Of a stretch of DNA of 64,000 nucleotides, positions 19,379-40,581 are shown one piece after another. The position numbers and the translations under genes were made by a program. This DNA is from an uncultured virus (IMG/VR IMGVR_UViG_3300037245_001434) (lineage: Duplodnaviria; Heunggongvirae; Uroviricota; Caudoviricetes), in IMG/VR virus record IMGVR_UViG_3300037245_001434. One strand, given 5' to 3'. The notes below the pieces were generated by a model that made no database searches, was not told the origin of the DNA, and worked only from the letters and a program-made list of their open reading frames with translations. Numbering within the stretch: the first letter of the stretch is position 1; the number at the start of each line of letters is the position of its first letter.

Positions 19379-19457
19379 AGTTTCTACCTATTCCAATATG
19401 CCCACTTTCTACATATTACAATATGGCCCGTTCTGTCTAGCTCTCTGTTATGTGTCA
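19379..19457 (+). repeat. attI-like site L (copy 1 of 79-bp inverted repeat), core GTTATGT 19447-19453
   Basis: 21-bp and 27-bp blocks identical to the reverse complement of 40503-40581; lies at the head of attC array 1. Confidence 0.75.
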
Positions 19458-19570
19458 TGTAGGTGGCTTAGCAAACGGTATCAATCTGGCATAATATGCC
19501 GCCATCAATAAACTGTATGACATCAGCCCATTAAGTGAGCAATAAAAAAGCGCCGCAAGTATTAGGTCGG

Positions 19571-19936
19571 TCACTGGTTAAATTCACTCTCTGAGATTTC
19601 AATCAGCTCTGACCGCTTGCGCCATATCCTATTGCCATTTTTAAGCCTAAGATTAACGTCATCGTATGACGCATCAGCATAAGAACCGTCAACTACACCC
19701 TTCTGCCCGGAGAATTTTTCACCACCACCGATCTTGTAGAAAGTACCACCAGCATCTGGGGTATTTAGCGATGCCCACCATTTAGGCTGCTTACTGCCTG
19801 AGTACTCAGCTCCCCATGGCTCCTGAAAAGAGCCACCGGAATAGTAAGCCTGAGTTACTAAGCAATCAGGCATAAATACCAGAACCATTGTATTTGATTC
19901 GGGCTTTTGCTCTTCAATTTGTTTCCATTCAATCAC
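19571..19936 (-). CDS. cassette 1 gene, DUF551-like N-terminus
   Basis: VIEWKQIEEQKPE..VLVF..KWWASL; GAGG RBS before a GTG start. Confidence 0.55.
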   Translation of the reverse strand: MIEWKQIEEQKPESNTMVLVFMPDCLVTQAYYSGGSFQEPWGAEYSGSKQPKWWASLNTPDAGGTFYKIGGGEKFSGQKGVVDGSYADASYDDVNLRLKNGNRIWRKRSELIEISESEFNQ

Positions 19937-19955
19937 AGGGTCACCTCTCGATACC

Positions 19956-20079
19956 ACATAACAAGTAAATAAACTCAGACCAAGGTCTGGTGTTTCTTTT
20001 CTTAATCTTCCCACTCGTCAAACATATCGCACCTCCTTAAGTTCATAGCCACCTTGGCTGGTGATTATGGTCGTTATAT
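19956..20079 (+). repeat. attC site 1
   Basis: ACATAAC...CAGACCAAGG...CCTTGGCTGG...GTTATAT. Confidence 0.85.
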
Positions 20080-20298
20080 TTCATTAAGCTGAAATGACTG
20101 AAGGGTTAGCACGCACTCGTCGTCATCACATGCTATTGATTTAGTCCATTCAATACCTGAGTCCCGCACGTCTACATGCGACAGCTCCTCGAAACCGCCA
20201 AAGTATTCGGCAAGAGTCTCATAACTAATATCTGAGTAGCCAAACACGCCAAGCACCGAATCATTAGCCCCCTCTGTTAATACGTAATATGTAGACAC
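20074..20298 (-). CDS. cassette 2 hypothetical protein
   Basis: GGAGG RBS, GTG start, stop TAA inside the attC core. Confidence 0.6.
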   Translation of the reverse strand: MSTYYVLTEGANDSVLGVFGYSDISYETLAEYFGGFEELSHVDVRDSGIEWTKSIACDDDECVLTLQSFQLNEI

Positions 20299-20313
20299 AA
20301 ACCACCTCCAAAA

Positions 20314-20400
20314 ATATAACAAGCAAAATCCACCGTGACGCTATAAAGCGCCGTTTTCTTAATTAATCACCGAGTGGCGCAGGTGATTTTCACGTTATAC
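20314..20400 (+). repeat. attC site 2
   Basis: ATATAAC...CACCGTGACGC...GCGCAGGTG...GTTATAC. Confidence 0.85.
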
Positions 20401-20748
20401 CTCTAAAGGCTCATACTTAACTTTCTCAAAATGCCAGTATCCATCGCCAATACCGCCAAGCTCATAATCAGGCGGCTCATAGCACATTCTAAATAAGTAA
20501 TCACCGTCACCACTATCAAATAAATTAAGAGTGTCTTCGTCGTCCATCTCAGCTACTTGCGTTTCTACGTCTTCGAGAATAGCTAAAGGCCAGTGACCCA
20601 CTGAGCCAGCAATAAATGGCGGATTGCCCTCCTGATAAAAGACCTGTACAAGCGCCTCTTTCAGCCTCGAAGGCATAACACGGCATTCGTTCTGACCTGC
20701 TACAACGTCGTTTTTTCCAACTTCATCACCACTTTCACCATCGCTCAT
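20395..20748 (-). CDS. cassette 3 hypothetical protein (starts in attC loop)
   Basis: ATG at 20748 inside attC3; stop in the attC2 core. Confidence 0.55.
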   Translation of the reverse strand: MSDGESGDEVGKNDVVAGQNECRVMPSRLKEALVQVFYQEGNPPFIAGSVGHWPLAILEDVETQVAEMDDEDTLNLFDSGDGDYLFRMCYEPPDYELGGIGDGYWHFEKVKYEPLEV

Positions 20749-20802
20749 CTCTTCATCCTCATGGTGTAATTGTCGCAGGCAGCACAATATAAATCGTTAT
20801 GT
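20673..20802 (+). repeat. attC site 3
   Basis: GCATAAC...CTGACCTGC...GCAGGCAG...GTTATGT. Confidence 0.8.
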
Positions 20803-20952
20803 GGCCTTCCATCCGTAAATAGTGCTCCCAAAAGGCACGATTCCCTCTTTTACCATTGCACCTTCACCAACCACCGCGTTTATTTTCCGCCACCCTTTTG
20901 CGGTTTTAATTCTCTGTCCAACTTGAATATTTTTACTTAATGTATAAGTCAT
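20797..20952 (-). CDS. cassette 4 small protein (51 aa)
   Basis: Manual translation MTYTLSKNIQVGQRIKTAKGWRKI...; stop in the attC3 core. Confidence 0.55.
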   Translation of the reverse strand: MTYTLSKNIQVGQRIKTAKGWRKINAVVGEGAMVKEGIVPFGSTIYGWKAT

Positions 20953-20954
20953 GT

Positions 20955-21266
20955 CTATTTCCCTATTAATTGTGAAGTTGTTGCAAGCTGGGTGAAGCTG
21001 AAAACCGTGTGGTTCATATATCCAGGGGTCTTTTTAAGTAGCCTCTCAACCCACTCACCTAGTCTTTCAGGTGAGTTAGGGGCTTTCCCTCTCGCCTGGG
21101 CGCACCCAAATATGGTCTCACCTTTCAAGCTGAGAAATTCAAATGCTACTGAGGTAACCCATTTCCCGCGTGGTTTCGCTGCGTTCTTTCGGGCTGCTTT
21201 GGTTTTTGCTTCAGAGGTCGCCTTGCCACCTTTAGCCCCAAGTTCCTGCGCTGCTACGTTTACCAT
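20955..21266 (-). CDS. cassette 4 basic protein with KGG-like N-terminus
   Basis: AQELGAKGGKATSEAKTKAARKNA; AGGAG RBS. Confidence 0.6.
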   Translation of the reverse strand: MVNVAAQELGAKGGKATSEAKTKAARKNAAKPRGKWVTSVAFEFLSLKGETIFGCAQARGKAPNSPERLGEWVERLLKKTPGYMNHTVFSFTQLATTSQLIGK

Positions 21267-21292
21267 GTCTCTCTCCTAAGTAAGTAATGGCA

Positions 21293-21320
21293 ATTATAGC
21301 AAAGCGCTTGGGTAAGTCAA
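21293..21320 (-). promoter_or_regulatory. cassette-borne sigma70 promoter TTGACT-N16-TATAAT (extended -10)
   Basis: Direct consensus match, TGCTATAAT. Confidence 0.7.
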
Positions 21321-21332
21321 GTATCCAAACCC

Positions 21333-21401
21333 ACATAACAATTAAATTCACGCGGACAACCTACGCTGCGCTCCGGTTTCCGGTGATTATGGGCGTTATA
21401 T
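21333..21401 (+). repeat. attC site 4
   Basis: ACATAAC...CACGCGGACAACC...GGTTTCCGGTG...GTTATAT. Confidence 0.9.
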
Positions 21402-21403
21402 TG

Positions 21404-21721
21404 CTAGTCCCACACTTTAGTGTTGGCAACCTTCCATATTTGCCCGGTTATGTTTGTTAGCTCTAACATCTGTCGCTCACCAAGCTTTCCAGAGAGTAGC
21501 TCATACAAATTCACTCTCGCTTGCTCTAGTTTTTCCAGCTCTAAAACAGGCACAGCCACGCACTTAGTGGTTGGTTTGGCCGGTAAGTCAGGCAGCATTG
21601 AAAGAGAGTGTGGTGGCTCTATCTGCTTTCCATGCTGCTCAATAACGCAGTTGCACGCATTACATACAGTGCTGCTGTCATGGTACGGTTCACATTGGTC
21701 TTTTGGGTGTTTACAGGTCAT
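21404..21721 (-). CDS. cassette 5 Cys-rich hypothetical protein
   Basis: CKH..C..CNAC; GGAG RBS. Confidence 0.55.
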   Translation of the reverse strand: MTCKHPKDQCEPYHDSSTVCNACNCVIEQHGKQIEPPHSLSMLPDLPAKPTTKCVAVPVLELEKLEQARVNLYELLSGKLGERQMLELTNITGQIWKVANTKVWD

Positions 21722-21740
21722 CTTCTGCTCTCCATCAGCA

Positions 21741-21826
21741 ATATAACAATTGCTTGAATTTTGACGGTTAAAGGTCGTCGTGTTTCCTGGTACTTGGTTC
21801 CGCCGCAAATTAAGCAGGCGTTAGGC
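21741..21826 (+). repeat. attC site 5
   Basis: ATATAAC..TGCTTGAATTTTGACGG...CCGCCGCAAATTAAGCAGGCGTTAGGC. Confidence 0.9.
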
Positions 21827-21858
21827 CGCACAACCAGAGGGCTATGCGGCCTGTATGT

Positions 21859-22350
21859 TTAGCTCTTGGTTTCCACTGTAGTTTTCTGCTCCACTGTTGG
21901 CCGTTGGTCAACAAATCCACAACAATCATTACCACCATCAACAGCGGTGAACGCCTCCTTCTGTGTTGTCACTTTAACGCCAGGGTGTCCAAAAACTTTA
22001 TCCACCAGTCGCTCAACCGTAGCGTTTCGGTCATTTGCAGAGTTCAGCTCTACCCGCATAACCTCCATGCTTATATTGCGTTCTCTAATGCTTACGTCTT
22101 TTTCTCTATCGCTCACTTCTTTGGCCGCTTTCTCAAGTGCATCGGCAGTGGTTTCAGCCATTCTTAGCACTTTAATTAGCTCGGCCTTTTCTTCAAGCTC
22201 TTGGTCTTGGTCTTTGATTCTACCGTTTGCTATTCTAAGTTCTCCCTTCGTTACCTTAGCCTCTGCAATAAAGTCACTCATTGCACCGGCTGTAGCTGCT
22301 GGTAGGTTATCGGCAATTAACTTTTTCATTTCTTTGGTAATATCAGTCAT
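21859..22350 (-). CDS. cassette 6 coiled-coil protein
   Basis: AGGA RBS; heptad-rich sequence. Confidence 0.6.
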   Translation of the reverse strand: MTDITKEMKKLIADNLPAATAGAMSDFIAEAKVTKGELRIANGRIKDQDQELEEKAELIKVLRMAETTADALEKAAKEVSDREKDVSIRERNISMEVMRVELNSANDRNATVERLVDKVFGHPGVKVTTQKEAFTAVDGGNDCCGFVDQRPTVEQKTTVETKS

Positions 22351-22397
22351 CGTCTTTTCCTTTTGTGTGTGTAATTCGTATTTCTTAAGAGGTGCCG

Positions 22398-22484
22398 GCC
22401 TAACACTCACATTCAGCGGATGGTGCTAGTCAAGCGTGTTTACTGGTACAGCAAACCGCCACCGTTGATGCTTAATCGTTATGT
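22398..22484 (+). repeat. attC site 6
   Basis: GCCTAAC...TCAGCGGATGG...CCACCGTTGA...GTTATGT. Confidence 0.85.
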
Positions 22485-22889
22485 GTCTACAGACTCAAGC
22501 ATTGTCCACACTTCGCCATAGGCCTCTTTCACATACCAGCCATTTTCCTCACCATCCACGCCAGATGGCCCAGTAGAAATAAAGCATTTAGCAAACTTAT
22601 GAGTACTTAGCTCCATTATCCCGGTTATTTTTTCCACCGGTATGCCGACTCTTTGATTTGCTACTGATGTAAATCCAATTATCTTCATTCTATTAATCCT
22701 CAGTTCATTCCAAATGCCAATTAGTAAGCTGAACTTCATCTCAGTATCTTGCACAGTTAACGGGCATCCAGTGCAATAAATCATATGCTCTTCAAAATCA
22801 ACAGCCGCATCATTCCCGCACCTAGGGCATGCTTGTACTGCTAACCCATTCCATAAATCACCCCTATTCCCCTCGATACCACATAACAA
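22479..22889 (-). CDS. cassette 7 ORF, Lar-like zinc ribbon plus second domain (start uncertain)
   Basis: CPRCG..CTGC..WNE, then MKIIGF...; stop in the attC6 core. Confidence 0.45.
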   Translation of the reverse strand: MLCGIEGNRGDLWNGLAVQACPRCGNDAAVDFEEHMIYCTGCPLTVQDTEMKFSLLIGIWNELRINRMKIIGFTSVANQRVGIPVEKITGIMELSTHKFAKCFISTGPSGVDGEENGWYVKEAYGEVWTMLESVDT

Positions 22890-23013
22890 TTCAAATTCAC
22901 AGCAGACTTGCTACAGTGTCGCGCTTTTCAATTATGTCGCCGTAAAGTATTACGGTAACATCTGCCAACTCATTGTATTTATTCACGCAAGATGGTGATT
23001 ATGGTCGTTATGT
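22881..23013 (+). repeat. attC site 7
   Basis: ACATAAC...TCACAGCAGACTTGC...GCAAGATGGTGA...GTTATGT. Confidence 0.8.
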
Positions 23014-23042
23014 TTCAAAACCACTTATCAATGGTAACGTAT

Positions 23043-23546
23043 ATGGCTACAGATAATGATATAACAAAAGAACACGCCAATAGTATAAAAGCAGCTGATG
23101 CTGGCAATAGAATTATTGGCATTTTAAAATCGCTATCAACAACATCTTCATCTACCATTGTTTTGTCAGTGATGCTCGTTTTCTTGCTGCATTCATATAT
23201 AGCATTTACATTATGTGATGCCTCATGGGTCGCATCATTTGGCGCATTATTATCCATTTTCTCTATCCTGTTAATTGCATCTGAATCATTATTTTCTGAA
23301 TTTAAAATTGATGTCATGAATATTTATGTAAATGGGTATCAAGATGAAATAGATACATTTGGCAATGACGGAATGTCGTGTCAAATACCAAAGGACAAAA
23401 TTGACTCAGAGCTTGAAGCTAGGCGAAAAAAGTTCAATATTAAATATAAAAACATAAGTCTTTATCTAAAGCTGTCTGTTTTTGGCACCTTAATATGGGC
23501 CTATGCTGGGTTCATAAACTTAAATAAACTAAACCTATGCTGCTAA
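23043..23546 (+). CDS. cassette 8 membrane protein (only sense-oriented cassette gene)
   Basis: About 3 TM segments, visibly AT-rich, ends 4 bp before attC8. Confidence 0.7.
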   Translation: MATDNDITKEHANSIKAADAGNRIIGILKSLSTTSSSTIVLSVMLVFLLHSYIAFTLCDASWVASFGALLSIFSILLIASESLFSEFKIDVMNIYVNGYQDEIDTFGNDGMSCQIPKDKIDSELEARRKKFNIKYKNISLYLKLSVFGTLIWAYAGFINLNKLNLCC

Positions 23547-23550
23547 ATAA

Positions 23551-23608
23551 ACATAACAATCAAATTCAGCCGACGCAAAAAGCCGCGCGGCTGATTTAAG
23601 CGTTATAC
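23551..23608 (+). repeat. attC site 8 (58 bp, classic 59-base element)
   Basis: ACATAACAATCAAATTCAGCCGACGCAAAAAGCCGCGCGGCTGATTTAAGCGTTATAC. Confidence 0.92.
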
Positions 23609-23642
23609 CGCTCTCAGCTTATGCCTTGAGCGGCACTATCCG

Positions 23643-23834
23643 TTAAAACAACTCTATTCTTCGGCTCAAAGTATTAACGTAATTTTCCATTGCTACTACT
23701 TGAACCATAAGTAAACCTTGGTCTACGGCTGTAAGATTTGCATAGGTATCTGTATGCATAAAATCTTTCAGCTTATCTAGCTTACTATCAAGCTCGTGCA
23801 TTTCATCTACTACTCGTTGTTGGTGTGGCTGCAT
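23643..23834 (-). CDS. cassette 9 crAss001_48-like small protein
   Basis: PHQQRVVDE..ELDSKLDKL..F...LL.VQ..AM..Y...LSRRI motif. Confidence 0.7.
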   Translation of the reverse strand: MQPHQQRVVDEMHELDSKLDKLKDFMHTDTYANLTAVDQGLLMVQVVAMENYVNTLSRRIELF

Positions 23835-23857
23835 AGTGCAAACTCCTTAGTAAATCG

Positions 23858-23986
23858 GTATAACAAGTCAAATTCACGCAGACCAAGGTCTGGCGTTTTC
23901 TCTAATAGCTTGGTTGCTTAATACTTATTCATGTCGTATCTCCTTAAGTTTCTAGCCACCTTGGCTGGTGATTATGGTCGTTATAC
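23858..23986 (+). repeat. attC site 9 (close relative of attC1)
   Basis: GTATAAC...CAGACCAAGGTCTGG...GCCACCTTGGCTGGTGATTATGGTCGTTATAC. Confidence 0.85.
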
Positions 23987-24598
23987 CTCATTCCCCCATA
24001 CGTCCCACCCATCGCGGGGCCGTCTAGCAAAAAGCTCTATTCGAGGGCCGTTGCTCATCTGTTCTATCATGTCCTGAAAAAACTCAGGCTTCTTACTGTG
24101 CTTCATAGGGCGCTTAACTTCCCACCATGTAGTGTCTAATCTGGTCTTTCCCTTCGGCATCTTCCCGCGCCTACCCAAAATTAGGTATTCTGTTGTAGGG
24201 CAATACAAGCCTCCTTGCCCCGTTCCTTTTGGTTTCTTGCACCATGTTAGCGTTTGGCAATATTTAAACCCCCACGCCTTTAGCACATCAAAAGCTGCAG
24301 GCAGGTATTTACCTGTAGTCCACAAATATAAATCACAGTTATCAGCGGCCAGCCCTTTCACATTCATCGCGCTTATCTCATCCACGCTCATGGTGTTGTA
24401 TGGCATCTCGCTGTCTTGTGGCTGGTAGCTAGAGCCACGCGGCGCAACACTGGCTTTACCCCACTTCCCATATTGCCAAGGTGGGTCAGCAACTATACAT
24501 TCGTAACCTCCATGAGGTATAACAATACCATCAAGCAGACCCGCTACTGCGCGATTTTCTTCTGGGTTTATCTCTTCATTCATGCTCTTAGCTTCCAT
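23981..24598 (-). CDS. MT-A70 family adenine methyltransferase (cassette 10)
   Basis: IVADPPW, LYLWTT, AWGFKY, HSKKP and IELFAR motifs. Confidence 0.9.
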   Translation of the reverse strand: MEAKSMNEEINPEENRAVAGLLDGIVIPHGGYECIVADPPWQYGKWGKASVAPRGSSYQPQDSEMPYNTMSVDEISAMNVKGLAADNCDLYLWTTGKYLPAAFDVLKAWGFKYCQTLTWCKKPKGTGQGGLYCPTTEYLILGRRGKMPKGKTRLDTTWWEVKRPMKHSKKPEFFQDMIEQMSNGPRIELFARRPRDGWDVWGNEV

Positions 24599-24637
24599 AG
24601 TTTTATTTACGCGGGCGGCTTATGCAAACCGTTATAT
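24517..24637 (+). repeat. attC site 10
   Basis: GTATAAC...AAGCAGACCCGC...GCGGGCGGCTT...GTTATAT. Confidence 0.85.
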
Positions 24638-24865
24638 TGCCCTACTTTTTAACCAATCAAAAATTGCTATTGGTGAATAAGCTTGACCTGGGAACTCATC
24701 AGTAAACTCTAAAATAACCTGCTCCCATGCTGGCACCCACCACCAATCAGTCCAGTCTATAGTGTCATGCCATCCATATATCCCATCTTCGTTTTTACAG
24801 TAGTTGATTCTTGTGTCTAACTCAGCAGCCCTTTTGCATAGCTTTTTAAATTGCCTTGGCTTCAT
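24632..24865 (-). CDS. cassette 11 hypothetical protein
   Basis: MKPRQFKKLCKRAA start; stop in the attC10 core. Confidence 0.55.
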   Translation of the reverse strand: MKPRQFKKLCKRAAELDTRINYCKNEDGIYGWHDTIDWTDWWWVPAWEQVILEFTDEFPGQAYSPIAIFDWLKSRAI

Positions 24866-24871
24866 CTGTCA

Positions 24872-25078
24872 TCACTCCGTAGGCTGTCGAAATCTATGCT
24901 CACCAACAATATCTCGACATAGATCCACACACACATTACAAATGTAAATCTGACTATCTAGAGGAGTTTTATTTGCAACTAAAACCTCTACTTCAGTCTG
25001 ACTCTTGCCACAAAAAGAGCAATATAACAATAGCTTCAACGCAGATTCGGTGCTTTCGTTCATTTTCTCGGTCTCCAT
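24872..25078 (-). CDS. ClpX C4-type zinc-finger protein (cassette 11)
   Basis: [22 protein letters not shown]. Confidence 0.8.
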
Positions 25079-25116
25079 CGTGTTAATTTCGCTCTCTGGT
25101 TAAGCGGTCGTTATAA
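25022..25116 (+). repeat. attC site 11
   Basis: ATATAAC..GCTTCAACGCAGA...TCTGGTTAAGCGGTCGTTATAA. Confidence 0.75.
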
Positions 25117-26765
25117 ATCACTCATAGTAACTTCGTTTTCATTGGCGATATCTTGCAATATCTGAGCCCTGTTTTTCTCTGCCTTGCCAGTAATATATTC
25201 TCGAATCCACTCCTCTACTCGGCTATTGAATTCATAGAGCGCTGCCAACTTACCCTCATCACAATCAGCAGTACGCATTGCAATATGTAGTGCGGCGTAT
25301 TCGGTCTCATGTCGAGCACCATAGACGGCTTCGGTCAGATGGTCGTCATAATCCTTTTTACTGGTGAGTACCCGGCACAACTCATTGACTTTCCATTGCT
25401 CTATGGCTTCCTCTTCTACACAAAGCTCAGCCATGCCGCCTAGATGCTCATTCAGGTCGCTATCAACCTTGCAGAACTCTGAGTTCAATGACTGACCATC
25501 AATTTGTAGCTCTCTGTTCATCTCATCAACTCAATTACTTTAAGCACTACAACATCAAAAGCGATATATCCAATAAATAATGACGCTACGAATGCACAAG
25601 CTATAAGCATGAGCAATGGAATTGGTGAGTAGGTTTGTTTATTGCTAGTCATTCTGCTTGCCTCTTTATTTCGAATGGGATGATATTGGTTGTTCCGTTG
25701 GTTTCAGCCTCATTCCTTCGAACAGTAGATAGCGGAGTGATGACTAAATCACCATTCCCGTGGTCGACAACCTCGCAATCGAGCATCTTGGTTATGAGGT
25801 ACACTTCCATGGTGGTGATATCTTGGTGCAGACTTATCGGCATCTCATTCATCTCCAGAGTTCCTGAAAAATTCTTTACGCTGAGCCACAGCTACGCATG
25901 GAAGGTGACACCACTTTCCGGCGTAAAACATGGCTGGCTGATCCGGTGTTAATGGTTCGTTGCATTTGCTGCACTGGATCGTCTCTGTTGGTCTTGTTAG
26001 AAGCATAATTTTCTATACTCCATGATCATGCTGTCAAAAACCGGCTTTGCGCCCATTGTAAAACTTGGTCCCCATATTTTAGCGGCCGCCCATATTTCCA
26101 TTTCAATGGTTTCATTGTGTGGTGGAGGCGCAATACATAACTCAAGATAGTGCTCGCGCCATATTTCCCAGCCACGCGAATTTGGTTTTAACGTTACATG
26201 GTCATTCCAATTAATATTGATCACATCAATCTCCTTAATTAATCAGATTGGCAGTGGATAACGAAAGGCGGGTGAGTCACACTCTTACCATTGGAAGTGA
26301 CCAATGAAGCAACATGCCAAACCTTAGATCCTTCTATTGTATCTTCCACCACAAACTCATATGAAATCGTGGACATTTCACCTCGTAACTCATTCTTGCA
26401 CTCAAGCCAGAAGAGGTATTCCATGTATATGGTGAATACCGGGTGATGGCCTTCAGCGACCAACCGGCTACGCTTTTCACGCAGCTCCTTTAGTAACTTA
26501 TCAAGTTTCATGACTTCACCTCTGCCAGCGCCTTTAATGCTAATCGCTCTTCAAAGGTGTCTCGCTCATCTTTCTCGAGGTTAGCCTTCCTGATTTCAAC
26601 ATTATGTTTATTTAGCACAAAATGATGCGGGTCTTCCCGTGGCGGATTCATCATAAGCGCATGGCGTCGATGAAATTTAGCTACTGCATGACCGCCTCTA
26701 TTTTCTATCCCTACAAAAGTGATGTCTTTCTCTCTCATATCAGCCTCATTGTTAAGTAGCAACAT
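25111..26765 (-). other. cluster of small leftward hypothetical genes (25111-25521, 25649-25852, 25997-26224, 26239-26511, 26508-26765)
   Basis: Closely packed co-oriented ORFs, no recognisable family. Confidence 0.55.
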
Positions 26766-31890: not shown

Positions 31891-31892
31891 AG

Positions 31893-32630: not shown

Positions 32631-32660
32631 CACCAACCTAAACCAAAGAGTGAGTTTATT

Positions 32661-32963: not shown

Positions 32964-33862
32964 TGGGCGATAAGCAAATACACATTGATCTCCTAAAAAA
33001 ACTAAGAGACCCATTCCCTCCTGAAGATGTTGAGTGGAGGGTTCAGTCATGCGGCATAAGTGGCACCCGGGCGTGGGTGATGGTAATTCCATACATCACT
33101 AATAGGGCCATCCAAAACCGTCTTGATGAGGTTTTCCCGTTTGCCTGGGAGAATGTGCAGAGACAAACAGCCGATGGTAAAGGCTACTTATGCGGAATAA
33201 CTATTCACATCGACGGTAAGGAGCTTACCAGATGGGATGGCGCAGAGTTCACTAACATAGAAGCTCTGAAGGGGGCGCTATCAAATGCAATGAAAAGGGC
33301 CGGGGCGCAATGGGGAATTGGCCGCTACCTATACAACATGGATGAGGCGTTCGCTGTTTGCGCGAAAAAAGAGAAAAGAAATGCTTGTATAGCAAATGCA
33401 GCAAAAACCAAAGAAAACGAGTGGATAGACTGGGAGACCCCTCCTCTACCAAAGTGGGCGCTTCCTTCTATCGGCCCTGGCCATTTCAAGGAGGCAATGG
33501 CAACCACCACCGATATGGAGCAATTGAAAGAGGCGTTTGAGAATGCCTGCAAATACTGCAAAACATCCGGTACAGATGAGATGCTTAAAGACTTCACTGC
33601 CGAGAAGGACAAGGAAGTTGATCGGATCACGAAACTACTAGAAAGCCAGAAAGAGGTTAACCTTGCCGCAGTAACAAAGTGGTTAAATAGAGAGGTATCT
33701 AACTTTGCAAGAGTCTCTAATGTTCCGGCAATTGATAGCGTTTATAAAACAATAAAAACATCTCTTACTTTGAAGTGCAAAGGGCAGGCGTTTGAAAGCG
33801 AGCCTCTGCATGCGCTTCTCAATGAATCATACACTAATCGTAAAAACGAGCTAGGGAGCTAG
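32960..33862 (+). CDS. Rad52/Sak-like single-strand annealing protein
   Basis: PFPPEDVEWR, YITNRAIQNRLDEV and KGALSNAMKRAGAQWGIGRYLY motifs. Confidence 0.85.
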   Translation: MMGDKQIHIDLLKKLRDPFPPEDVEWRVQSCGISGTRAWVMVIPYITNRAIQNRLDEVFPFAWENVQRQTADGKGYLCGITIHIDGKELTRWDGAEFTNIEALKGALSNAMKRAGAQWGIGRYLYNMDEAFAVCAKKEKRNACIANAAKTKENEWIDWETPPLPKWALPSIGPGHFKEAMATTTDMEQLKEAFENACKYCKTSGTDEMLKDFTAEKDKEVDRITKLLESQKEVNLAAVTKWLNREVSNFARVSNVPAIDSVYKTIKTSLTLKCKGQAFESEPLHALLNESYTNRKNELGS

Positions 33863-33864
33863 AC

Positions 33865-34947
33865 ATGAGCAACGGCCAGAAAAAACCATCATCAATTAAA
33901 GAATATGACGCTATTGAAGCAGGCATTAGTAAACTGAAAGAGACTTATCCAACAGTGCCAGACTGCCAATCTACAAGCGGCCTAGAGCTTTGCAAGGCAA
34001 GCTATCGCAACATAAGAAAGATAGAGACCACTATTGAGAAAAAACGAAAAGATATCAATGAGGAGTCGCAAGCGAAAATCAAACTTGTTAATAGTGAGGC
34101 AAAGCGGGTTACGGCATTGGTTCAAGGCGTAAGTGGCCCATTCAAGATAGCTAGAGATGAGCGCCTGGAAGAGATTGAGCTTGAAGAAGAGAAGCGTGTC
34201 GCCGGCATTAGAGAGGAGATAGACGGGCTAAAGGTTTTTGTCAGTGATGGACATCAAGCTGACTCTGAAGGTGTGTCAGGTCTTATTGAGGCCGTAAAGC
34301 TTATTGACTGCTCAGAGAGCTTCGCTGAATTCACTCAGGAGGCTGTCAGGACTCAGAAAGAAGTGCTTGAGCAGCTTGGTAACATCCTTCAGTCAAAGCT
34401 TACAGCAGAGGCAGCAGAGCGCGATAGAGTGGCTGCTGAAGAGCGCCAACGTGACATTGATATTCAAGAGAAGATTAATAATATCCGCATGATCTCGGCA
34501 GACTGTTTTGATATGTCATCTGCTGAGATTAAAGAGAAGCATGATGAACTTACCACGAAGGTAGTTGGCACAACAGAGTTTGGTAATCGCGGCAATGAGG
34601 CTGAGGCCGCTATAGTTGTGGAATTAGAGCGACTTAACACCATGATAGGTCGAGCAAAGCAGATTGAGGAGGTGGAAGCCGAAAAGCTACGTAAGGAAGA
34701 AGAGGCGGAGAAGACCACTCAGGAAGAGGCTACGCTTACTGCTGCTGAAGTTATTGAGACACCAGCACCTGTGTATGTAGCGAAATCCGCTCCAGTTTCT
34801 TCTGTTTCGATTGCTAGCCAAGAGAAGCCGAGTGATGACCTCTATGATCAGGTAGCAACATGGGCAAATAAGCATGGCGTTTCGCTTAAGGCTACAAATG
34901 AGCTTAACGCTATTTTTGATCGATACATATTCACGCTCAAGGAGTAA
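33865..34947 (+). CDS. coiled-coil protein of the recombination module
   Basis: IEKKRKDI..VNSEAKRV heptads; next to the annealing protein. Confidence 0.55.
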   Translation: MSNGQKKPSSIKEYDAIEAGISKLKETYPTVPDCQSTSGLELCKASYRNIRKIETTIEKKRKDINEESQAKIKLVNSEAKRVTALVQGVSGPFKIARDERLEEIELEEEKRVAGIREEIDGLKVFVSDGHQADSEGVSGLIEAVKLIDCSESFAEFTQEAVRTQKEVLEQLGNILQSKLTAEAAERDRVAAEERQRDIDIQEKINNIRMISADCFDMSSAEIKEKHDELTTKVVGTTEFGNRGNEAEAAIVVELERLNTMIGRAKQIEEVEAEKLRKEEEAEKTTQEEATLTAAEVIETPAPVYVAKSAPVSSVSIASQEKPSDDLYDQVATWANKHGVSLKATNELNAIFDRYIFTLKE

Positions 34948-35258
34948 TGTATGTCAAACCTAATAGACAGCTATCGTATTTTGTCTTTGATCATAACTGG
35001 CATTGTGATCATTTTCTTTGGGCCGATAACTAGAGGCATATTTGCGGCGTTAGGCTGGCAATAACTCAAGGGGTAAATTATGCAAAGGAAGAAACTAACC
35101 GACGCGCAGAAGGCGGTATTTAGCAGCATTATTGCGCCAGAAGATCAAGGTAGATTCCCAAAAGAGACGACTCCTGAGATGGTAGCAAAGGGAGATAAGA
35201 GGCGAGGAGTTGAGATTGCTATTGAAGAGAAAAAGTCACGTGATGAGTGGGATTTGCT

Positions 35259-35696
35259 GTGAAGATCACATTCACAAAGCAATTAGGCGGCGCTCTTATT
35301 CCTGCATCAGAAGTCGAGGCGGGCCGAATGGATCGCTTTAAGAGTGGCGAGATATATGAGATTGATATCAAGCTGACTCGCAACCCGTCTTTTCACGGCA
35401 AGGTTTTTGAATTCTTCACATTTTGCTTCAATTACTGGAGGTCAGATAGAGAATTTATGGATGATCCTGCTCAGTTTGATGTGTTCAGAAAGCACATGAC
35501 CGTACTAGCTGGATATTACGATGAGTTTTACACCATAGATGGAACTGTAAGGGTTGAGGCTAAATCAATCTCATATGCCAATATGGATCAGGCTGACTTT
35601 GAGGCTTTGTATTCGGCGTTGATTAATGTTGCGTTGGCTAAAATCTTTGTAGGTGCCGATGAAAATATTGAAGCGCAATTGTTGAGCTTCTTTTAA
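35259..35696 (+). CDS. DUF1367/NinB-like protein
   Basis: RNPSFHGKVF, FDVFRK..TVLAGY and AKSISYANMDQADF motifs. Confidence 0.8.
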   Translation: MKITFTKQLGGALIPASEVEAGRMDRFKSGEIYEIDIKLTRNPSFHGKVFEFFTFCFNYWRSDREFMDDPAQFDVFRKHMTVLAGYYDEFYTIDGTVRVEAKSISYANMDQADFEALYSALINVALAKIFVGADENIEAQLLSFF

Positions 35697-35998
35697 TGAG
35701 CGCAATCACGGCATCAGCAAAAGGCCAGCCATGCGTTAGATGTGGCCGAGAAGACGGCACCACATGCGCTAGGCATTATAACGGTTTACGTCAACACCAG
35801 TACGGCAAGGGTCGAAGCGTAAAGGGCCATGATATGGGTAGTGCTGAACTATGCGATACGTGTGAGCCTGATTTCTCAGAGGGAGTGAATATATTTGATG
35901 ATGAAAGAGCTGGAAAATCAATCGAGAGGTCAGAGGAGTTTCTGCACCTTATCATGCTAACCAATATCGCTAGATTTGAACGAGGTGATTTAAAATGA
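35696..35998 (+). CDS. DUF1364/YbcO-like nuclease
   Basis: SAKGQPCVRC..H..KGHD..CDTC. Confidence 0.65.
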   Translation: MSAITASAKGQPCVRCGREDGTTCARHYNGLRQHQYGKGRSVKGHDMGSAELCDTCEPDFSEGVNIFDDERAGKSIERSEEFLHLIMLTNIARFERGDLK

Positions 35999-36307
35999 AA
36001 GCAATACACTATTCCGGCCCTGGATGCGGAGGAATGTTGCCAGGGTGGCCGGTTTGCGGGTCTGGTGACTTCGCTTACAAGGTAGTCGACGATGGAAATC
36101 ACACCCACTTAATTGGTGCTGTGACGTGTAAAAAATGCCTGAAGAAAATGGATAAATTTAACTTACTTACTGAGCAAGGGTCTAACTCTCCCTAGGTGTG
36201 ATTGGCCATCATGCTCATTCGGCCCGTGTTGATCGCCCCTCATAATTGGTTAGTCGCCATGAGGGGTTGGTCGGCTCGTTAATATAGAAATTAATTGCTA
36301 TTAACTG

Positions 36308-36335
36308 TTGACGAATAGAAATATACTGCTATAAT
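36308..36335 (+). promoter_or_regulatory. sigma70 promoter TTGACG-N16-TATAAT (extended -10)
   Basis: Direct consensus match. Confidence 0.7.
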
Positions 36336-36934
36336 TAACTCAACATCAACGCAAACAGAGAGCAAGCAAATGAGCACATTCAACGCAACCAAAGTAGCCG
36401 CCTTCATCTCTTCACAGACTTACACTCAGTACGATTACCAAGTTCGCGGATTAGTTGCTACTCATTTCGGTATTACCCTGATCACTGCTGCTCGCTGGGT
36501 GGAGCGCGTTACTCAGGCTGGGATGGTTCGTGCCAGCGGCAAAGTGGCCTTGTCGGTAGCTTAAATAATGTGGGAATGCCTGTGGGCGAACAGGAGGTGG
36601 CGGAACCAGGAGGGAATGGTAATAGAGCGGAGATGGCAGCTTATAGCTGAGGCCAAAGAAAATTACTTCTTCTGCTACAGATCAGCTGATGACTTCCATG
36701 CTGGCAATAACTTCACAACTAAATCAACGCTAAGAGAAGCAAAGAAGGTGTTTGAATGCACGACTTTACAAGGCAAGCAAAAGCCAAAGGCTGGACAAAT
36801 AAAGCCATAGGCCATAGATGGGGAGGCTTAACAGGGCGGCAGATGAGCAATATATCGGCCAACCCAAAACAAAAAGACTGGGACGCTCTCAGCGGCCTTC
36901 CTAATCTTAGTAAATTAATCAATAGGGCATAACT

Positions 36935-37855
36935 ATGTTTTTCAAGAATCTACGTTTGTACCAATTAACCAGTGAGTTCTCGCTAACAGGTGAGGAGCTT
37001 CACGACAAGCTGCTTGAGCGGGAATTTAAACCGTGTGGCAGTCACTCGCCAAATAGCTTTGGCTGGTCTCAGCCGCTCGGCAGTGATGCTAAGTTACTAA
37101 CCCACACCGCTAACATCTGCATCATGATTTGTGCGTGCCAGGAACAGAAGATTTTACCTGCTTCGGTTATCAATGAATATTTGCAGGATAAAGTGTCAGC
37201 TATTGAGGGCGTTGAAGGTAGAAAAATTCGAGGCAAAGAAAAGGCCCGAATGAAGGATGAGATTATTTTTGAGCTACTACCGCAGGCATTCTCTAAGATC
37301 GTCAAGACCTACGCCTATATCGATGTAAAAAACGGCTGGTTAATCGTTGATTCTCCATCAGCGAATCGCGCTGAAGAGTTGATTTGTCTACTTCGTGAAT
37401 CGCTGGGTAGTTTTCCAGTAGTGCCGGCATTAACTAACCGCAATCCTGTTGAGGTGCTGACCAAGTGGATGACTGGCGATGAGAATCACGAAGGCTTCAC
37501 CATTCAAGGTGATTGTGAATTGCGTGACTACTACGACACTGAAGGAAGCGTTATTCGCTGCAAGGGGCAAGACCTATCATCAACCGAAGTCATCGCGCAT
37601 ATAAGCGCCGGAATGACAGTAGCGAAGCTTACGATTGAGCTAAACGAGCGAATCAGCTTCAATCTATGTGATGATTTCTCAATTAAGCAACTCAAGTTCC
37701 TTGATATGGTTCAGGAGGAAGTGGCTGATATTGAATCTGACGATCACGCTTCTCGATTTGATGCCGATTTCTCAATAATGAGCCTTGAGCTTGAACGGCT
37801 TATTTCTCGGCTGTTTGAGATTTTTGGTGGCACCCTTAATGAGCAGAAGGAATAA
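36935..37855 (+). CDS. rdgC: recombination-associated protein RdgC
   Basis: MFFKNLRLYQL, EQKILPASVI, ELLPQAF, LLRESLGS and FDADF motifs. Confidence 0.92.
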   Translation: MFFKNLRLYQLTSEFSLTGEELHDKLLEREFKPCGSHSPNSFGWSQPLGSDAKLLTHTANICIMICACQEQKILPASVINEYLQDKVSAIEGVEGRKIRGKEKARMKDEIIFELLPQAFSKIVKTYAYIDVKNGWLIVDSPSANRAEELICLLRESLGSFPVVPALTNRNPVEVLTKWMTGDENHEGFTIQGDCELRDYYDTEGSVIRCKGQDLSSTEVIAHISAGMTVAKLTIELNERISFNLCDDFSIKQLKFLDMVQEEVADIESDDHASRFDADFSIMSLELERLISRLFEIFGGTLNEQKE

Positions 37856-37857
37856 AA

Positions 37858-38121
37858 ATGGCGCATCATGATTTAAAGACAGACCCAGAAGTGTTTCAAG
37901 CTTCAGCAGATGGAGTTAAGAATTTTGAGATACGGTTTAATGACAGGGATTACCGCCCCGGTGATGAACTTACTTTGCACGAAACAGAGTATAGCGGCAA
38001 AGAAATGAAAGATGGAAAGCCGCTGATTTACACTGGTCGCTCCGTTAAATGCGAGGTTGATTACGTGCTGCACGGTGGCAATTATGGATTAGAAAAAGGA
38101 TGGGTAATCCTTTCCGTTTAA
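37858..38121 (+). CDS. DUF3850/ASCH domain protein
   Basis: HDLKT..F....DGVKNFEIRFNDRDY..GD. Confidence 0.85.
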   Translation: MAHHDLKTDPEVFQASADGVKNFEIRFNDRDYRPGDELTLHETEYSGKEMKDGKPLIYTGRSVKCEVDYVLHGGNYGLEKGWVILSV

Positions 38122-38218
38122 CACTAAAAACGCTTGGTTGGCGTTCTCAGCAGGCTGAGTTAATTAGCGTCATGGCCTGGAATGTGGCGCTTACCCTTTA
38201 AGAAAACAGGTTTCTACA

Positions 38219-38446
38219 ATGGCAAAAAGTATTGAAGCAATAATAAGTGAGTATCTTGGCGTAAAGATGGAAGAGGTCACGCCGGACGCTCATATTTTTG
38301 ATGATCTTGGGGCGGACTCACTAGATCATGTCGAAATAGTTATGGCTATCGAGGAGGAATATTCAATAGAAATACCTGATGATGATTGTGAGAAGTGGAA
38401 AACAGTTCAGGATATTACTGCCACGGTAGAGAGGCTCAAAAAATGA
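38219..38446 (+). CDS. acpP: acyl carrier protein
   Basis: [21 protein letters not shown] with the phosphopantetheine Ser motif. Confidence 0.9.
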
Positions 38447-38688
38447 ATAAAACACTAGCCGATAGATTGCGTCGCAGAAGGCGAGAGTGCGGGGTCACGC
38501 AGGCTCAACTTGCTGCAAAAGCCTGCACATCACAAGGCGTAATAGCAAAGATTGAAAACGGTAAATCTAAGTTACCACGCATTATCGAGGAAATAGCTAA
38601 AGTGCTGGGAGTTAATCCAGGCTGGTTAATGTTTGGGCCAAAGAGTGCACCGAAGATCGTTCCTGAGTCGCCTTTTCCAGAAGACTAA
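38443..38688 (+). CDS. XRE family HTH regulator
   Basis: [33 protein letters not shown]. Confidence 0.85.
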
Positions 38689-38855
38689 AGCGCCTAAGTA
38701 ATGGTCGATCTACACCTATGCAATACCTGTGAAAATCAATCAGGGTATAACGTCGAGCATCCAGCCATTTGCTCCACCCTGGTAGTGGTTAGAGTCAAGC
38801 CTAATCCAGCTACTTCTGATGGGTGCGAATGTAGGCAGGTAGTGATTTGTCTCGG

Positions 38856-38942
38856 GTATAACGATTTGAATAACCAGCGGCATACTAAAGGTTAAATAGA
38901 GGCGGTAAGTTTGCACCGTCTGCGTTAATTACCTTGTTATAC
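38856..38942 (-). repeat. attC site (array 2, third)
   Basis: Minus strand GTATAACAAGG..AACGCAGACGG...CCGCTGGTT..CGTTATAC. Confidence 0.8.
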
Positions 38943-38968
38943 ATGCACTTACTTTAGAGGTTAAGTTA

Positions 38969-39496
38969 ATGACAAAGAAGTACCAGATAATATATGCCGA
39001 CCCCCCGTGGCGATATAGTTTTAGCAAAAGCAACTCACGGAAGATAGAAAATCAATACCCCACAATGACCCAAAAGGAGCTATGCGCCCTAAGTGTTCCA
39101 GCAGACGACAATAGCGCTCTCTACTTATGGACTACCGCCCCAAAGCTTTTAGAGGGGCTGGAGGTAATGAAGGCGTGGGGGTTTACTTATAAATCACAAG
39201 CGGTATGGGACAAGAAGAGAATAGGGATGGGCTACTGGTTTAGAGGGCAGCACGAAATTCTGTTAGTTGGCACCAAAGGTAAGTTTAGCCCCCCAGAGCA
39301 AAAGGACAGGCGCAGCAGTGTTTTTGAGTTTACAAGAGGCCAGCACAGCAAGAAGCCGGACGAGGTGCGCGATTTAGTAAAGGCGTGGTTCCCAGATGCA
39401 AACAGAGTTGAGCTATTTTGCCGATACCCCGCCGAAGGCTGGGACGTATGGGGTAACGAAGTTGAATGCACCGCCGAATTACACTGTGCTGTATAA
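38969..39496 (+). CDS. MT-A70 family adenine methyltransferase (second copy)
   Basis: IYADPPW, LYLWTT, GMGYWFRGQHE, HSKKP and VELFCR motifs; stop in attC core. Confidence 0.9.
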   Translation: MTKKYQIIYADPPWRYSFSKSNSRKIENQYPTMTQKELCALSVPADDNSALYLWTTAPKLLEGLEVMKAWGFTYKSQAVWDKKRIGMGYWFRGQHEILLVGTKGKFSPPEQKDRRSSVFEFTRGQHSKKPDEVRDLVKAWFPDANRVELFCRYPAEGWDVWGNEVECTAELHCAV

Positions 39497-39576
39497 CGAT
39501 TACAATAAATTGCGGCGGAACCAAGCTGATACAGAGCGCGTAGCTTGAACCGTCGATTTGATTTTGCTTGTTATGT
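39491..39576 (-). repeat. attC site (array 2, second; relative of attC5)
   Basis: Minus strand ACATAACAAGC..AAATCGACGGTT...CTTGGTTCCGCCGCAATTT..CGTTATAC. Confidence 0.85.
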
Positions 39577-39602
39577 GGTGTTGAAAGGAATAGAGGTAAT
39601 TT

Positions 39603-39830
39603 ATGAGTGAATGGATAAAGGTTACTGACAGGCTGCCAGAAATCTTCGACACATATTATGTATACCCATCTGGAAAGTACAGCGGGAGCTTTGTTGAATT
39701 CTGGACGTTCGAAGACTTTAAGGGCCACAAGAAAAACACTTTTGAATGGACGAATAGTGACGATGATGTGTTTCAAGTTGATGTTACGCACTGGATGCCG
39801 ATACCAGCCCCACCGATAGCTGAGGATTAA
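39603..39830 (+). CDS. DUF551-like protein
   Basis: MSEWIKVTDRLPE...VTHWMPIPAPP. Confidence 0.8.
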   Translation: MSEWIKVTDRLPEIFDTYYVYPSGKYSGSFVEFWTFEDFKGHKKNTFEWTNSDDDVFQVDVTHWMPIPAPPIAED

Positions 39831-39834
39831 TAGA

Positions 39835-40020
39835 ATGATTTGCTCTAACTGCATGTACAGGAATGATTGCTACCTATACGGCAAAGTAAAAGACCAATGC
39901 ACCTATAAGGAGGAAGGTGAGATAAGCATGTCGCTTGGAGCGATTACCGCGACTATTGAAGAAGCAAAAAAAGACGACCCAGAGTTTTACCAAGAGTTGA
40001 AAGAAATGTTTAACACATAA
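39835..40020 (+). CDS. small Cys-rich protein
   Basis: CSNC..C..C; stop in attC core. Confidence 0.5.
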   Translation: MICSNCMYRNDCYLYGKVKDQCTYKEEGEISMSLGAITATIEEAKKDDPEFYQELKEMFNT

Positions 40021-40144
40021 CGATAAATAGTAAGCCGCCGCGAGAACGTGGCAGTGACTTAATAAAGGAATTATGAATATGAACACACTAAACTCTAAAA
40101 AAAGAGCGATGCTGTTAGCGGTCTGCTTGACTGCCGTGTTATGT
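40015..40144 (-). repeat. attC site (array 2, first)
   Basis: Minus strand ACATAACACGG..AAGCAGACCGC...GCGGCGGCTT..CGTTATGT. Confidence 0.8.
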
Positions 40145-40345
40145 GTGGGTTCACTTAGCGGGTGCATGTATCAAGAGATAGACCAGAACGACATTGCTAA
40201 TGCTGTGGATGCCTGTAAAAACAAAGGCGGTGTATTTCATATAGAAGAGCACTTTACAGGAGACACCGTAGTAACCTGCAAAAACGCAAAAATAGTAAAT
40301 ATCGACAAGTGGGCAATAGCCGATGTTGCTGGAGATCAAAAATGA
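40073..40345 (+). CDS. predicted lipoprotein starting in the attC loop
   Basis: AAGGA RBS; KKR, hydrophobic stretch, LSGC lipobox. Confidence 0.65.
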   Translation: MNMNTLNSKKRAMLLAVCLTAVLCVGSLSGCMYQEIDQNDIANAVDACKNKGGVFHIEEHFTGDTVVTCKNAKIVNIDKWAIADVAGDQK

Positions 40346-40512
40346 AAAAGTTTATTTTACGGCGCAAGATGATTTACACCGAACGTGCCGAGGTTGAAGC
40401 CGAAAGCTTTGATGCTGCAAAAGAAATATTAGAAGGTGACGATGTTGATTTTGAAGTACAGAACGACGACATGCTGCACGATAGTAGCTATGAATACATT
40501 GGTGACACATAA
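40342..40512 (+). CDS. small acidic protein
   Basis: MKKFILRR..EVEAESFDAAKE; stop in the attI-like core. Confidence 0.55.
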   Translation: MKKFILRRKMIYTERAEVEAESFDAAKEILEGDDVDFEVQNDDMLHDSSYEYIGDT

Positions 40513-40581
40513 CAGAGAGCTAGACAGAAGGTGAGCGTATTGAGATATATAGAATAGGCTATATTGGAATAGGTAGAAACT
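40503..40581 (-). repeat. attI-like site R (copy 2 of 79-bp inverted repeat)
   Basis: Reverse complement of 19379-19457; minus-strand core GTTATGT at 40507-40513. Confidence 0.75.

Follow-up and report, generated by a model that had tools for sequence, protein, structure and literature searches.

Integrons are generally regarded as gene-capture devices of bacteria, and many of the cassettes in chromosomal integrons have been linked to anti-phage defence. An integron cassette usually, though not obligatorily, consists of a gene on the top strand of an attC recombination site followed by that attC site, and the crossover takes place inside the GTT box; the variable letters that follow GTT at the end of a site are therefore part of the cassette that comes next, and they pair with the start box of the site of this cassette itself. 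An attC site is made up of two imperfect inverted-repeat pairs (R''-L'' and L'-R') around a variable middle, with AAC and GTT conserved in the outer boxes; extrahelical bases on the R''-L'' arm determine the choice of strand, and IntI recombines the site as a folded single strand. Complete integrons have an intI gene beside the array and an attI site at its head. In the promoter-early stem-loop (PeSL) cassettes of T4-type phages, repeated intergenic hairpins likewise bound shuffled accessory early genes; PeSLs are thought to act via homologous recombination of promoter-hairpin units and have neither attC boxes nor cross-cassette complementarity. Here we describe a stretch of 64,000 nt (hereafter the window) from an uncultured phage of marine sediment (IMG/VR record IMGVR_UViG_3300037245_001434), in which 14 palindromic elements are probably genuine integron attC sites arranged in two integrase-less arrays, this being the best explanation of the evidence as a whole.

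Clusters of two or more neighbouring attC sites lacking an integron integrase (CALINs) are already known from phages. A screening of 10,705 phage genomes yielded 17 reported integrase-less attC clusters, and the integrase IntI1 recombined five of six phage-borne attC sites with attI1 (Qi et al. 2023, PMC9892861); in the rows of Table S1 of that study that were accessible, two to three predicted attC sites are given per phage, with three in phage TJE1. As in the window, attC-bounded cassettes without an integrase, DNA methyltransferase cassettes and a proposed supply of IntI in trans are features of these CALINs. Compared with the accessible part of that study, the window differs by its 14 sites in two arrays, by the mirror-image arrangement of these arrays around the replication and early-control region with a repeat at the head of each, by 13 antisense cassettes out of 14 and by the existence of a relative with an array at the same place. 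Among the sedentary chromosomal integrons of marine Gammaproteobacteria, the integron fragment of Vibrio anguillarum present in the prophage Va_90-11-286_p16 resembles the window in its TAAC/GTTA boxes with spacers of 4-5 nt, in a predicted inner stem whose one-base bulge is equally far from the box, in box complementarity across cassettes and in cassette size. By contrast, it contains the intIA gene beside the array, its genes are mostly oriented along the attC top strand, and its sites have a uniform length of about 130 nt, whereas those of the window vary from 58 to 133 nt. A report of large paired attC arrays in a phage was not found in the literature.

Fourteen imperfect palindromes were delineated in the window, eleven of them (E1 to E11) with the top strand on the plus strand (19956-25116) and three (F1 to F3) with the top strand on the minus strand (38856-40144). 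The original prediction, which was made from the sequence alone, had listed 11 and three attC-type elements of 58-133 bp on the two strands, and its count, strands and size range were all reproduced. On the top strand, the start box RY(A/C)TAAC is separated by 4-5 nt from an inner arm, which often reads AAATTCAC and precedes GCGGAC-like letters; beyond a variable middle come the return arm, frequently GGTGAT, four spacer nucleotides and (C/G)GTTA plus three variable letters. The start box of E6 (GCCTAAC) and the end box of E5 (GTTAGGC) are canonical, and E5 has a stretch of 20 nt in common with F2 (95%). Ten of the 25 plus-strand copies of CGTTAT in the window fall in the region 20072-25109, and the half-site ATAACGNCCATAATCACC occurs four times, compared with an expected number of 0.15. 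An alignment of 12 elements with four attC sites of a related phage, which is described below, revealed TAAC...GTTA with a paired outer box in all 16 sites. The inner stem was 82.6% paired, with changes on both sides in nine of the 12 pairs. In the comparison with shuffles, 84.8% of the cells were paired as against 72.0%, and the covariation of the stem amounted to 0.327 as against 0.134 in shuffled alignments, none of the 500 shuffles attaining such a high value. In the inferred structure, one unpaired base is located on the first arm, 8 nt past AAC, and the consensus of the Vibrio attC sites has its unpaired base there as well.

The elements were compared with bacterial attC sites by means of two covariance models, the E-values of which are rough owing to a short calibration. 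Model R1 was based on the intIA-linked integron of Vibrio phage Va_90-11-286_p16 (MK672802), 15 attC sites of which were used, and was applied to the window with filters off and a limit of E <= 10, whereas model R2 was built from 12 sites of the window and the four sites of the relative, leaving out E3 and E8. The R1 scan resulted in 18 matches, and elements accounted for seven of the eight best ones, with exact limits and all on the plus strand; in total, eight of the 14 elements were recovered, five of them at E < 0.1 and all on the predicted strand. With R2, exactly the 14 elements were detected in the window at E <= 1.8e-6, the next-best match having an E-value of 0.33. Applied to the Vibrio record, R2 detected each of the 16 attC sites, with the correct strand and scores of 25.7-37.8 bits, and gave no match in the other 28 kb. 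Moreover, R2 matched six sites in three Desulfobacterales integron loci and, at E <= 1e-5, sites of up to 56.7 bits in 21 of 151 sampled genomes of Gammaproteobacteria, where the matched sites share the build of the phage elements, CATAACAA..CAC.CGGAC...CCGGTGAT..GCGTTAT. Among the attC predictions of Qi et al. in the Vibrio phages H188 and jenny 12G5 (two each), none was recovered by R2, which gave a single match of 17 bits (E 0.34); either R2 is narrower than the pipeline of Qi et al. or these predictions are weak. The identification of the elements as attC sites is favoured because a model of bacterial attC sites fits the phage sites and a model of the phage sites fits bacterial attC sites, a check with an attC covariance model having been suggested along with the original prediction.

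The organization of the elements into cassettes is evident from the junctions between them. A total of 14 ordered junctions (from the repeat copy at the head of an array to the first site, then from site to site) were considered, with 200,000 permutations of the partners as a control. At 13 of these junctions, the end box of one site complements the start box of the next one exactly over at least 8 nt, in runs of 8-12 nt that reach 12 nt between the end box of E9 and E10; the permutations gave a mean of 3.07, and none of them reached 13. Within single sites, box complementarity of at least 8 nt was found in just two of the 14 cases. The elements are read as the borders of cassettes because their boxes complement each other across a cassette and not within one site, and this pairing is the mark left by integrase crossover in the GTT box of folded attC sites. 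The same cross-cassette pattern was seen by eye at the first three junctions of the Vibrio control integron. Additionally, at 10 of the 14 junctions, the adjoining gene ends with a TAA stop codon that is complementary to TTA in the crossover box. A generic count of 8-nt GTTA...TAAC inverted pairs over the whole window was uninformative (66 pairs, compared with a mean of 34 and a maximum of 62 in shuffles).

The junctions bear in particular on an explanation at the RNA level, according to which the elements are intergenic hairpins that serve as terminators, processing sites or stabilisers of early transcripts and resemble attC sites only superficially. Such a role would suit the location of the elements between genes, their alignment with the direction of transcription in both operons, the terminator-like stems in E1, E8 and E9 and the slightly better folding of the gene-sense strand in 13 of the 14 elements. 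Local hairpins leave the box pairing across genes unexplained, however, and the same applies to the model matches with bacterial attC sites in both directions and to the identity of the E8 core with bacterial sites; in addition, the numbers of terminator-like and promoter-like signals are not above those in shuffles. We consider this explanation highly improbable, while a weak terminator activity could still be a by-product of attC sites. Three further candidates were rejected: an interpretation of the elements as sigma-70 promoters or terminators on account of the counts just mentioned, promoters of a single-subunit RNA polymerase because no polymerase family was found with Pfam and PHROGs, and a Xer/dif-like module because a compact 28-bp site with two arms is not present and the boxes are 50-120 nt apart.

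Neighbouring sites are spaced by 0.3-0.7 kb within each array (Table 1). The deduced products of the left array include an MT-A70 DNA methyltransferase, a protein of the crAss001_48 family and a ClpX-type zinc-finger protein, the others being without a family in Pfam and PHROGs, and the right array encodes a second MT-A70 methyltransferase, 39% identical to the first one, along with a DUF551 protein, a lipoprotein-like protein and the products of small open reading frames (ORFs). In 13 of the 14 cassettes, the genes are antisense to the attC top strand, on which R1 and R2 agree, a feature that had been overlooked in the original prediction; the usual layout is realized in the cassette 23008-23602 only. 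With 11 and three clustered attC sites and no integrase in the window, the two arrays are CALINs by definition, and the earlier interpretation of the locus as integron-like cassette arrays devoid of IntI was borne out, also by the crossover signature at the junctions.

Table 1. Coordinates of attC sites, cassette arrays and associated features in the 64-kb window (R1 and R2, scores with the two covariance models; training, site used to build R2)
Feature	Position	Strand	Length	R1	R2	Remarks
attC E1	19956-20079	+	124 nt	12.1 bits	70.1 bits (training)	
attC E2	20314-20400	+	87 nt	12.3 bits	62.9 bits (training)	
attC E3	20673-20802	+	130 nt		40.2 bits, E 1.8e-6 (not training)	
attC E4	21333-21401	+	69 nt	17.2 bits	match	
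attC E5	21741-21826	+	86 nt	26.7 bits, E 8.8e-5	match	
attC E6	22398-22484	+	87 nt		57.6 bits (training)	
attC E7	22881-23013	+	133 nt		65.7 bits (training)	
attC E8	23551-23608	+	58 nt	23.0 bits	46.3 bits (not training)	
attC E9	23858-23986	+	129 nt	15.6 bits	match	
attC E10	24517-24637	+	121 nt		65.3 bits (training)	
attC E11	25022-25116	+	95 nt	27.4 bits, E 5.5e-5	match	innermost left site
attC F1	38856-38942	-	87 nt	8.4 bits, E 8.1	70.9 bits (training)	innermost right site
attC F2	39491-39576	-	86 nt		match	
attC F3	40015-40144	-	130 nt		52.5 bits (training)	
Left array	19448-25110					11 cassettes of 321-658 bp, 1-2 ORFs each; genes on - except 23043-23546(+)
Right array	38862-40512					3 cassettes of 492-635 bp; genes on +
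E8 cassette	23008-23602	+				membrane-protein ORF 23043-23546(+), then attC E8; usual orientation
Left repeat copy	19379-19457	+				head of left array; GTTATGT crossover-type box 19447-19453
Right repeat copy	40503-40581	-				head of right array; 9-nt complementarity with F3
Iteron-like repeats	31509-31763					inside O-like replication gene 31051-31890(-); repeat family scan, PHROGs
Promoter-like site	32151-32124	-				divergent pair, control region near 32.1-32.2 kb
Promoter-like site	32180-32208	+				divergent pair, control region near 32.1-32.2 kb

Some further observations concern the arrays and their possible outliers. Within the left array, the best match to a sigma-70 site (TTGACT, 16 nt, TATAAT with TG) is located at 21293-21320(-), barely within a cassette and ahead of ORF 20955-21266, and this cassette may carry its own promoter. 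E1 and E9 resemble each other over 63 nt at 89% (20023-20085 and 23930-23992), with unrelated flanking genes; on the gene strand (-), the common stretch contains a strong ribosome-binding site and mini-ORFs of seven and four codons inside the attC sites, and it looks as if a gene start had been left behind. Near the start of the window, a weak attC-like match at 351-417(+) with self-complementary AAATAAC/GTTATTT boxes (R2 16.3 bits, E 0.33) overlaps the signal-peptide end of the lipoprotein-like ORF 213-422(-), and GGGGCGTTATAC is found at 223-234(-) beside the stop codon of this ORF; the region 223-417 could be the edge of a third array leaving the window at its start. At 50294-50359 and 50880-50899, the end-box-like words CGTTATAT, CAGTTATTC and GGTGATGGTTATGG are found where two minus-strand ORFs (50354-50626 and 50894-51649) have their 3' ends, and as in the arrays the stop codon falls within GTTA. 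These words have no first arm and were matched by neither R1 nor R2, and they may be decayed half-sites.

A relative of the phage was available as an IMG/VR record of 45,405 bp with terminal repeats, rated 69% complete by CheckV, the large terminase subunit (TerL) of which is 75% identical. Its structural genes show a nucleotide identity of 64-75% to those of the window, and the early region is not in common. The relative contains four attC sites on the strand opposite to its genes and accordingly the same antisense layout. These sites reached 34.7 and 26.7 bits with R1 and 39-51 bits with R2, to the training of which all four had contributed, and they are chained by box complementarities of 8, 8, 8 and 9 nt. 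This array has its head about 6 kb upstream of the TerL gene, like the right array of the window, and none of the cassette proteins matched a protein of the window. Because the relative has an array at the same distance from TerL with unrelated cassette proteins, the position of the array is kept in this lineage, with a different cassette content. The comparison of cassettes across related phages, envisaged along with the original prediction, has thus revealed different contents at the same place, in one relative. Matches of half-site patterns elsewhere in IMG/VR (3 and 11, all single) were attributed to chance, as none was accompanied by a further site according to R2. Searches of 50,697 deposited phage records by megablast with the region 19300-25300 and by tblastn with the 928-aa ORF described below yielded no relatives, and the best TerL match among these records was 42.5% identical.

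The cassette with the usual orientation ends with attC E8 and differs from the others in several respects. The G+C content of the bin 23001-24000 that contains it is low (0.366), and when the contigs of two metagenome runs (X1 and X2) were aligned to positions 19300-39299, the contig depth over E8 was 359, as against about 23 elsewhere. Dozens of these contigs have the middle of E8 in common, with the flanks GCCTAACAAGGCT and AGCGGCGTTAGGC instead of those of the phage. A motif scan for E8-type sites with one genome per species resulted in 44 bacterial loci from Desulfobacterales, Syntrophales, Chlorobi, Calditrichia, Gammaproteobacteria, Acidobacteriota, Spirochaetota and other groups; the 34-nt core of E8 (23563-23596) is identical in nine of these loci and has at most two mismatches in 22 of them. 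Four of five tested genomes with E8-type loci encode an IntI above the NCBIfam cut-off, and in two of these the IntI gene appears to lie 3.7-10 kb from the locus, apparently on the same contig and in a divergent arrangement, as would be expected for integrons. E8 is thus alike in its core to a type of attC site of 58-60 nt (GCCTAACAAGGCT...AGCGGCGTTAGGC) in the metagenome-assembled genomes of sediment bacteria that contain the 44 loci, but the outer boxes of the bacterial type are CCTAAC/GTTAGG, whereas E8 has ATAAC/GTTAT boxes and spacers of the phage kind. The nearly fixed core of this attC type across distant phyla suggests a broad cassette traffic in sediments. Moreover, a contig of 516 nt from run X2, which represents a different metagenome, covers positions 23050-23564 with five differences (99% identical), and the phage genes neighbouring the E8 cassette are absent from that run. 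A relative of the membrane-protein cassette was not found in metagenome or genome collections. By these sequence features, the E8 cassette looks bacterial.

Several observations weigh against the interpretation of the 14 elements as attC sites of integrase-less integron arrays. R1 missed six elements at E <= 10 (E3, E6, E7, E10, F2 and F3), and only three of the 14 sites reach 20 bits with this model, which is the threshold of Qi et al. The stem structure of R2 was derived from the same alignment on which the pairing was counted, which biases the slid-partner control in favour of the structure and leaves the shuffle control unbiased, and the bulged base of the inner stem differs in identity between the sites. 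The junction from E2 to E3 is mismatched, eight of the first nine nucleotides matching when the start of E3 as set by R2 is used. Four sites (E3, E10, E11 and F3) extend into the 5' coding end of a gene. For E3 this is ORF 20395-20787(-), and the first arms of the other three lie within the MT-A70 methyltransferase gene 23981-24598(-), the ClpX-type zinc-finger gene 24872-25078(-) and the signal-peptide coding part of ORF 40073-40345(+), respectively. In agreement with what had been noted from the ORFs initially, a tyrosine recombinase was detected neither by Pfam (117 ORFs) nor by PHROGs (84 ORFs) in the window, where a tblastn search with Vibrio IntIA gave just a match of eight residues (E 5.9), and the 45-kb record of the relative contains neither a PF00589 match nor an IntIA-like stretch. 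Finally, no excised, reordered or inverted form was present in the contigs of the two runs, although contigs cannot reveal rare forms; the inversion of about 21 kb considered in the original prediction received no support, and for the stretch between the repeats such an event is conceivable in principle. Joints at element edges in run X2 (20077>22401, 21398>22880, 21399>22881 and 21402>23859) were not counted as cassette loss because their sides comprise just 20-24 nt at 80% likeness.

Part of these observations would be expected of fossil arrays, in which cassettes of earlier acquisition or assembly have become fixed accessory genes, with decaying attC sites and no recombination in the phage of today. 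The lack of an integrase in the window and in the relative, the single arrangement in the run contigs, the imperfect E3 junction together with the coding sequences overlapping E3, E10 and E11, and the sites missed by R1 are all compatible with such a state. Decay is at odds, however, with the 13 junctions that are still exact over 8-12 nt and with the stems that still co-vary, just as fixation is with a relative that has structural genes 65-71% identical and wholly different cassettes at the same place, and with a cassette that is 99% identical to a contig from another metagenome without the neighbouring phage genes. We regard fossil arrays as unlikely. Alternatively, the phage might use a recombinase of its own that is encoded beyond the window. 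A contig of 56,254 nt from run X1, which is probably the source of the window, extends about 16 kb past the window end, so that at least this much of the genome is located outside the window and could provide room for such a gene; the record of the relative, which has terminal repeats and is rated 69% complete, contains an array but no PF00589 or IntIA-like match, and a recombinase of the phage itself seems quite improbable to us. The interpretation as genuine attC sites in integrase-less arrays is thus retained as the probable one.

With respect to the heads of the arrays, the earlier observation that both arrays start from a 79-bp inverted repeat, with one copy for each, was confirmed, the arms being 100% complementary over 27 nt (19431-19457/40503-40529) and 21 nt (19379-19399/40561-40581). 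The two copies align over about 80 nt, and their likeness ends 4 nt beyond the GTTATGT box, which in the left copy is complementary to the first box of E1 over 8 nt. The left copy contains two direct repeats (19381-19400 and 19406-19425) that are identical at 18 of 20 positions, and a looser third one. In attI1, the direct repeats DR1 and DR2 are located ahead of the core boxes, according to the accessible part of Qi et al. (2023, PMC9892861). Because two direct repeats precede a crossover-type box as in attI1, and this box has a suitable place and orientation, the 79-bp repeat may by analogy be an attI-like entry site. The further proposal that the repeats are dedicated capture platforms is plausible in view of the attI-like direct repeats, but the array head of the relative shows no likeness to the 79-bp repeat beyond the box (by eye), which weakens the attI-like interpretation. 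The repeat could instead be a regulatory or boundary element of the early/late junctions, with the box at its edge as the scar of a first cassette insertion at a secondary site. Both copies are indeed located exactly at the early/late junctions, the left one adjoining a bidirectional terminator-like hairpin (19330-19360) and the right one a TATAAT promoter-like site ahead of gene 40645, and the unrelated array head of the relative would be in line with this explanation as well. A boundary element does not readily account for the end of the likeness 4 nt past the box, nor for the two direct repeats in front of it that recall DR1 and DR2, and we lean against it while taking it as a serious possibility. 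A 22-nt repeat pattern gave no match in JGI metagenomes.

The gene content of the window identifies it as phage DNA. The plus strand of the region 0.8-19.3 kb contains genes for the head, neck, tail and baseplate that are of the E217/Pam3 kind, and the genes for the small and large terminase subunits, the portal protein and a Mu F-like protein are found at 44.9-50.3 kb, followed at 50.3-63 kb by a minus-strand block with RtcB, NAD-salvage genes and four tRNAs. The early region (19.4-40.6 kb) is organized in the lambdoid style and contains the recombination genes Erf-like, NinB and RdgC according to PHROGs. Its genes are encoded on the minus strand to the left of the control region and on the plus strand to the right of it, and the iteron-like repeats between the two arrays are the presumed replication origin, judging from their sequence. 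Among the individual genes, an acyl-carrier-protein-like gene (38219-38446(+); PP-binding, E 3.7e-15) belongs to the right early operon just inside the innermost right attC site, and an ORF of 928 aa without a family in Pfam and PHROGs (41511-44297(+)) is located just beyond the right repeat. An endonuclease VII/HNH-like gene with an I-HmuI-type NUMOD-like domain (45510-46121(+)) is situated between the genes for the terminase subunits. In the region 55013-60825(-), tRNA genes for Gln, Tyr, Leu and Pro adjoin genes for an RtcB ligase, an RlaP-like nucleotidyltransferase, an HD-domain protein, an enzyme of the NAMPT/NAPRTase family and a phosphoribosyltransferase-like protein, which together form an RNA-repair and NAD-salvage block of a kind linked to escape from host defence.

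For the proposed mechanism, an IntI-type integrase would act in trans to excise and insert the attC-bounded cassettes. It would most likely be supplied by a marine host that has an integron, a gene in the rest of the phage genome being the second possibility. The arrays are located at the far ends of the two divergent early operons, and the cassette genes, mostly inverted relative to their attC sites, would be read through from the early promoters. Replication in both directions from the iterons near 31.6 kb would make the attC bottom strand the lagging-strand template in both arrays, and early transcription would have this strand as its non-template strand on either side. Folding and excision are favoured by such an orientation, and in 25 of 30 sedentary chromosomal integrons the bottom strand is on the leading-strand template, as stated in the accessible part of Loot et al. 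(2017); published work also connects the orientation of the phage type with a fast turnover of cassettes. Compared with these sedentary integrons, the phage arrays appear to have the opposite orientation, given the presumed origin. The mirror layout could be a design for high turnover or could equally be a by-product of keeping the genes co-directional with the early operons. In a wider and more speculative reading, the phage lineage would permanently maintain its own integron platforms, devoid of an integrase, for the exchange of phage accessory genes. The cassette pool would be adapted to phages, with genes antisense to attC and readable from the early promoters, bacterial cassettes such as that of E8 would also be drawn on, and the cassettes would enter at the attI-like repeat that ends each early operon. 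Replication from a central origin and early transcription would both expose the recombinogenic strand in both arrays, and the phage would hijack the SOS-induced IntI of the host during infection, with a fast turnover of cassettes as the result. This reading is tentative, and we consider it doubtful as a whole.

While integrase-less attC clusters in phages had been reported before, the occurrence of 14 sites in two facing, repeat-headed arrays is new, as are the systematic antisense layout, the kept position of an array with different cassettes and the identity of an attC core with that of a widespread bacterial type. The presence of 14 well-formed cassettes in a phage would imply that viruses use integron exchange for their own accessory genes, and the two DNA methyltransferases encoded among the cassettes may provide protection against restriction. 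The turnover of cassettes seen in the relative and the bacterial core of E8 would make this more than an isolated case. The phage offers a testable case of reliance on a host recombinase and a possible route for cassettes between bacteria and viruses, and the mirror layout of its arrays would serve as a natural test of how the directions of replication and transcription affect the mobility of cassettes.

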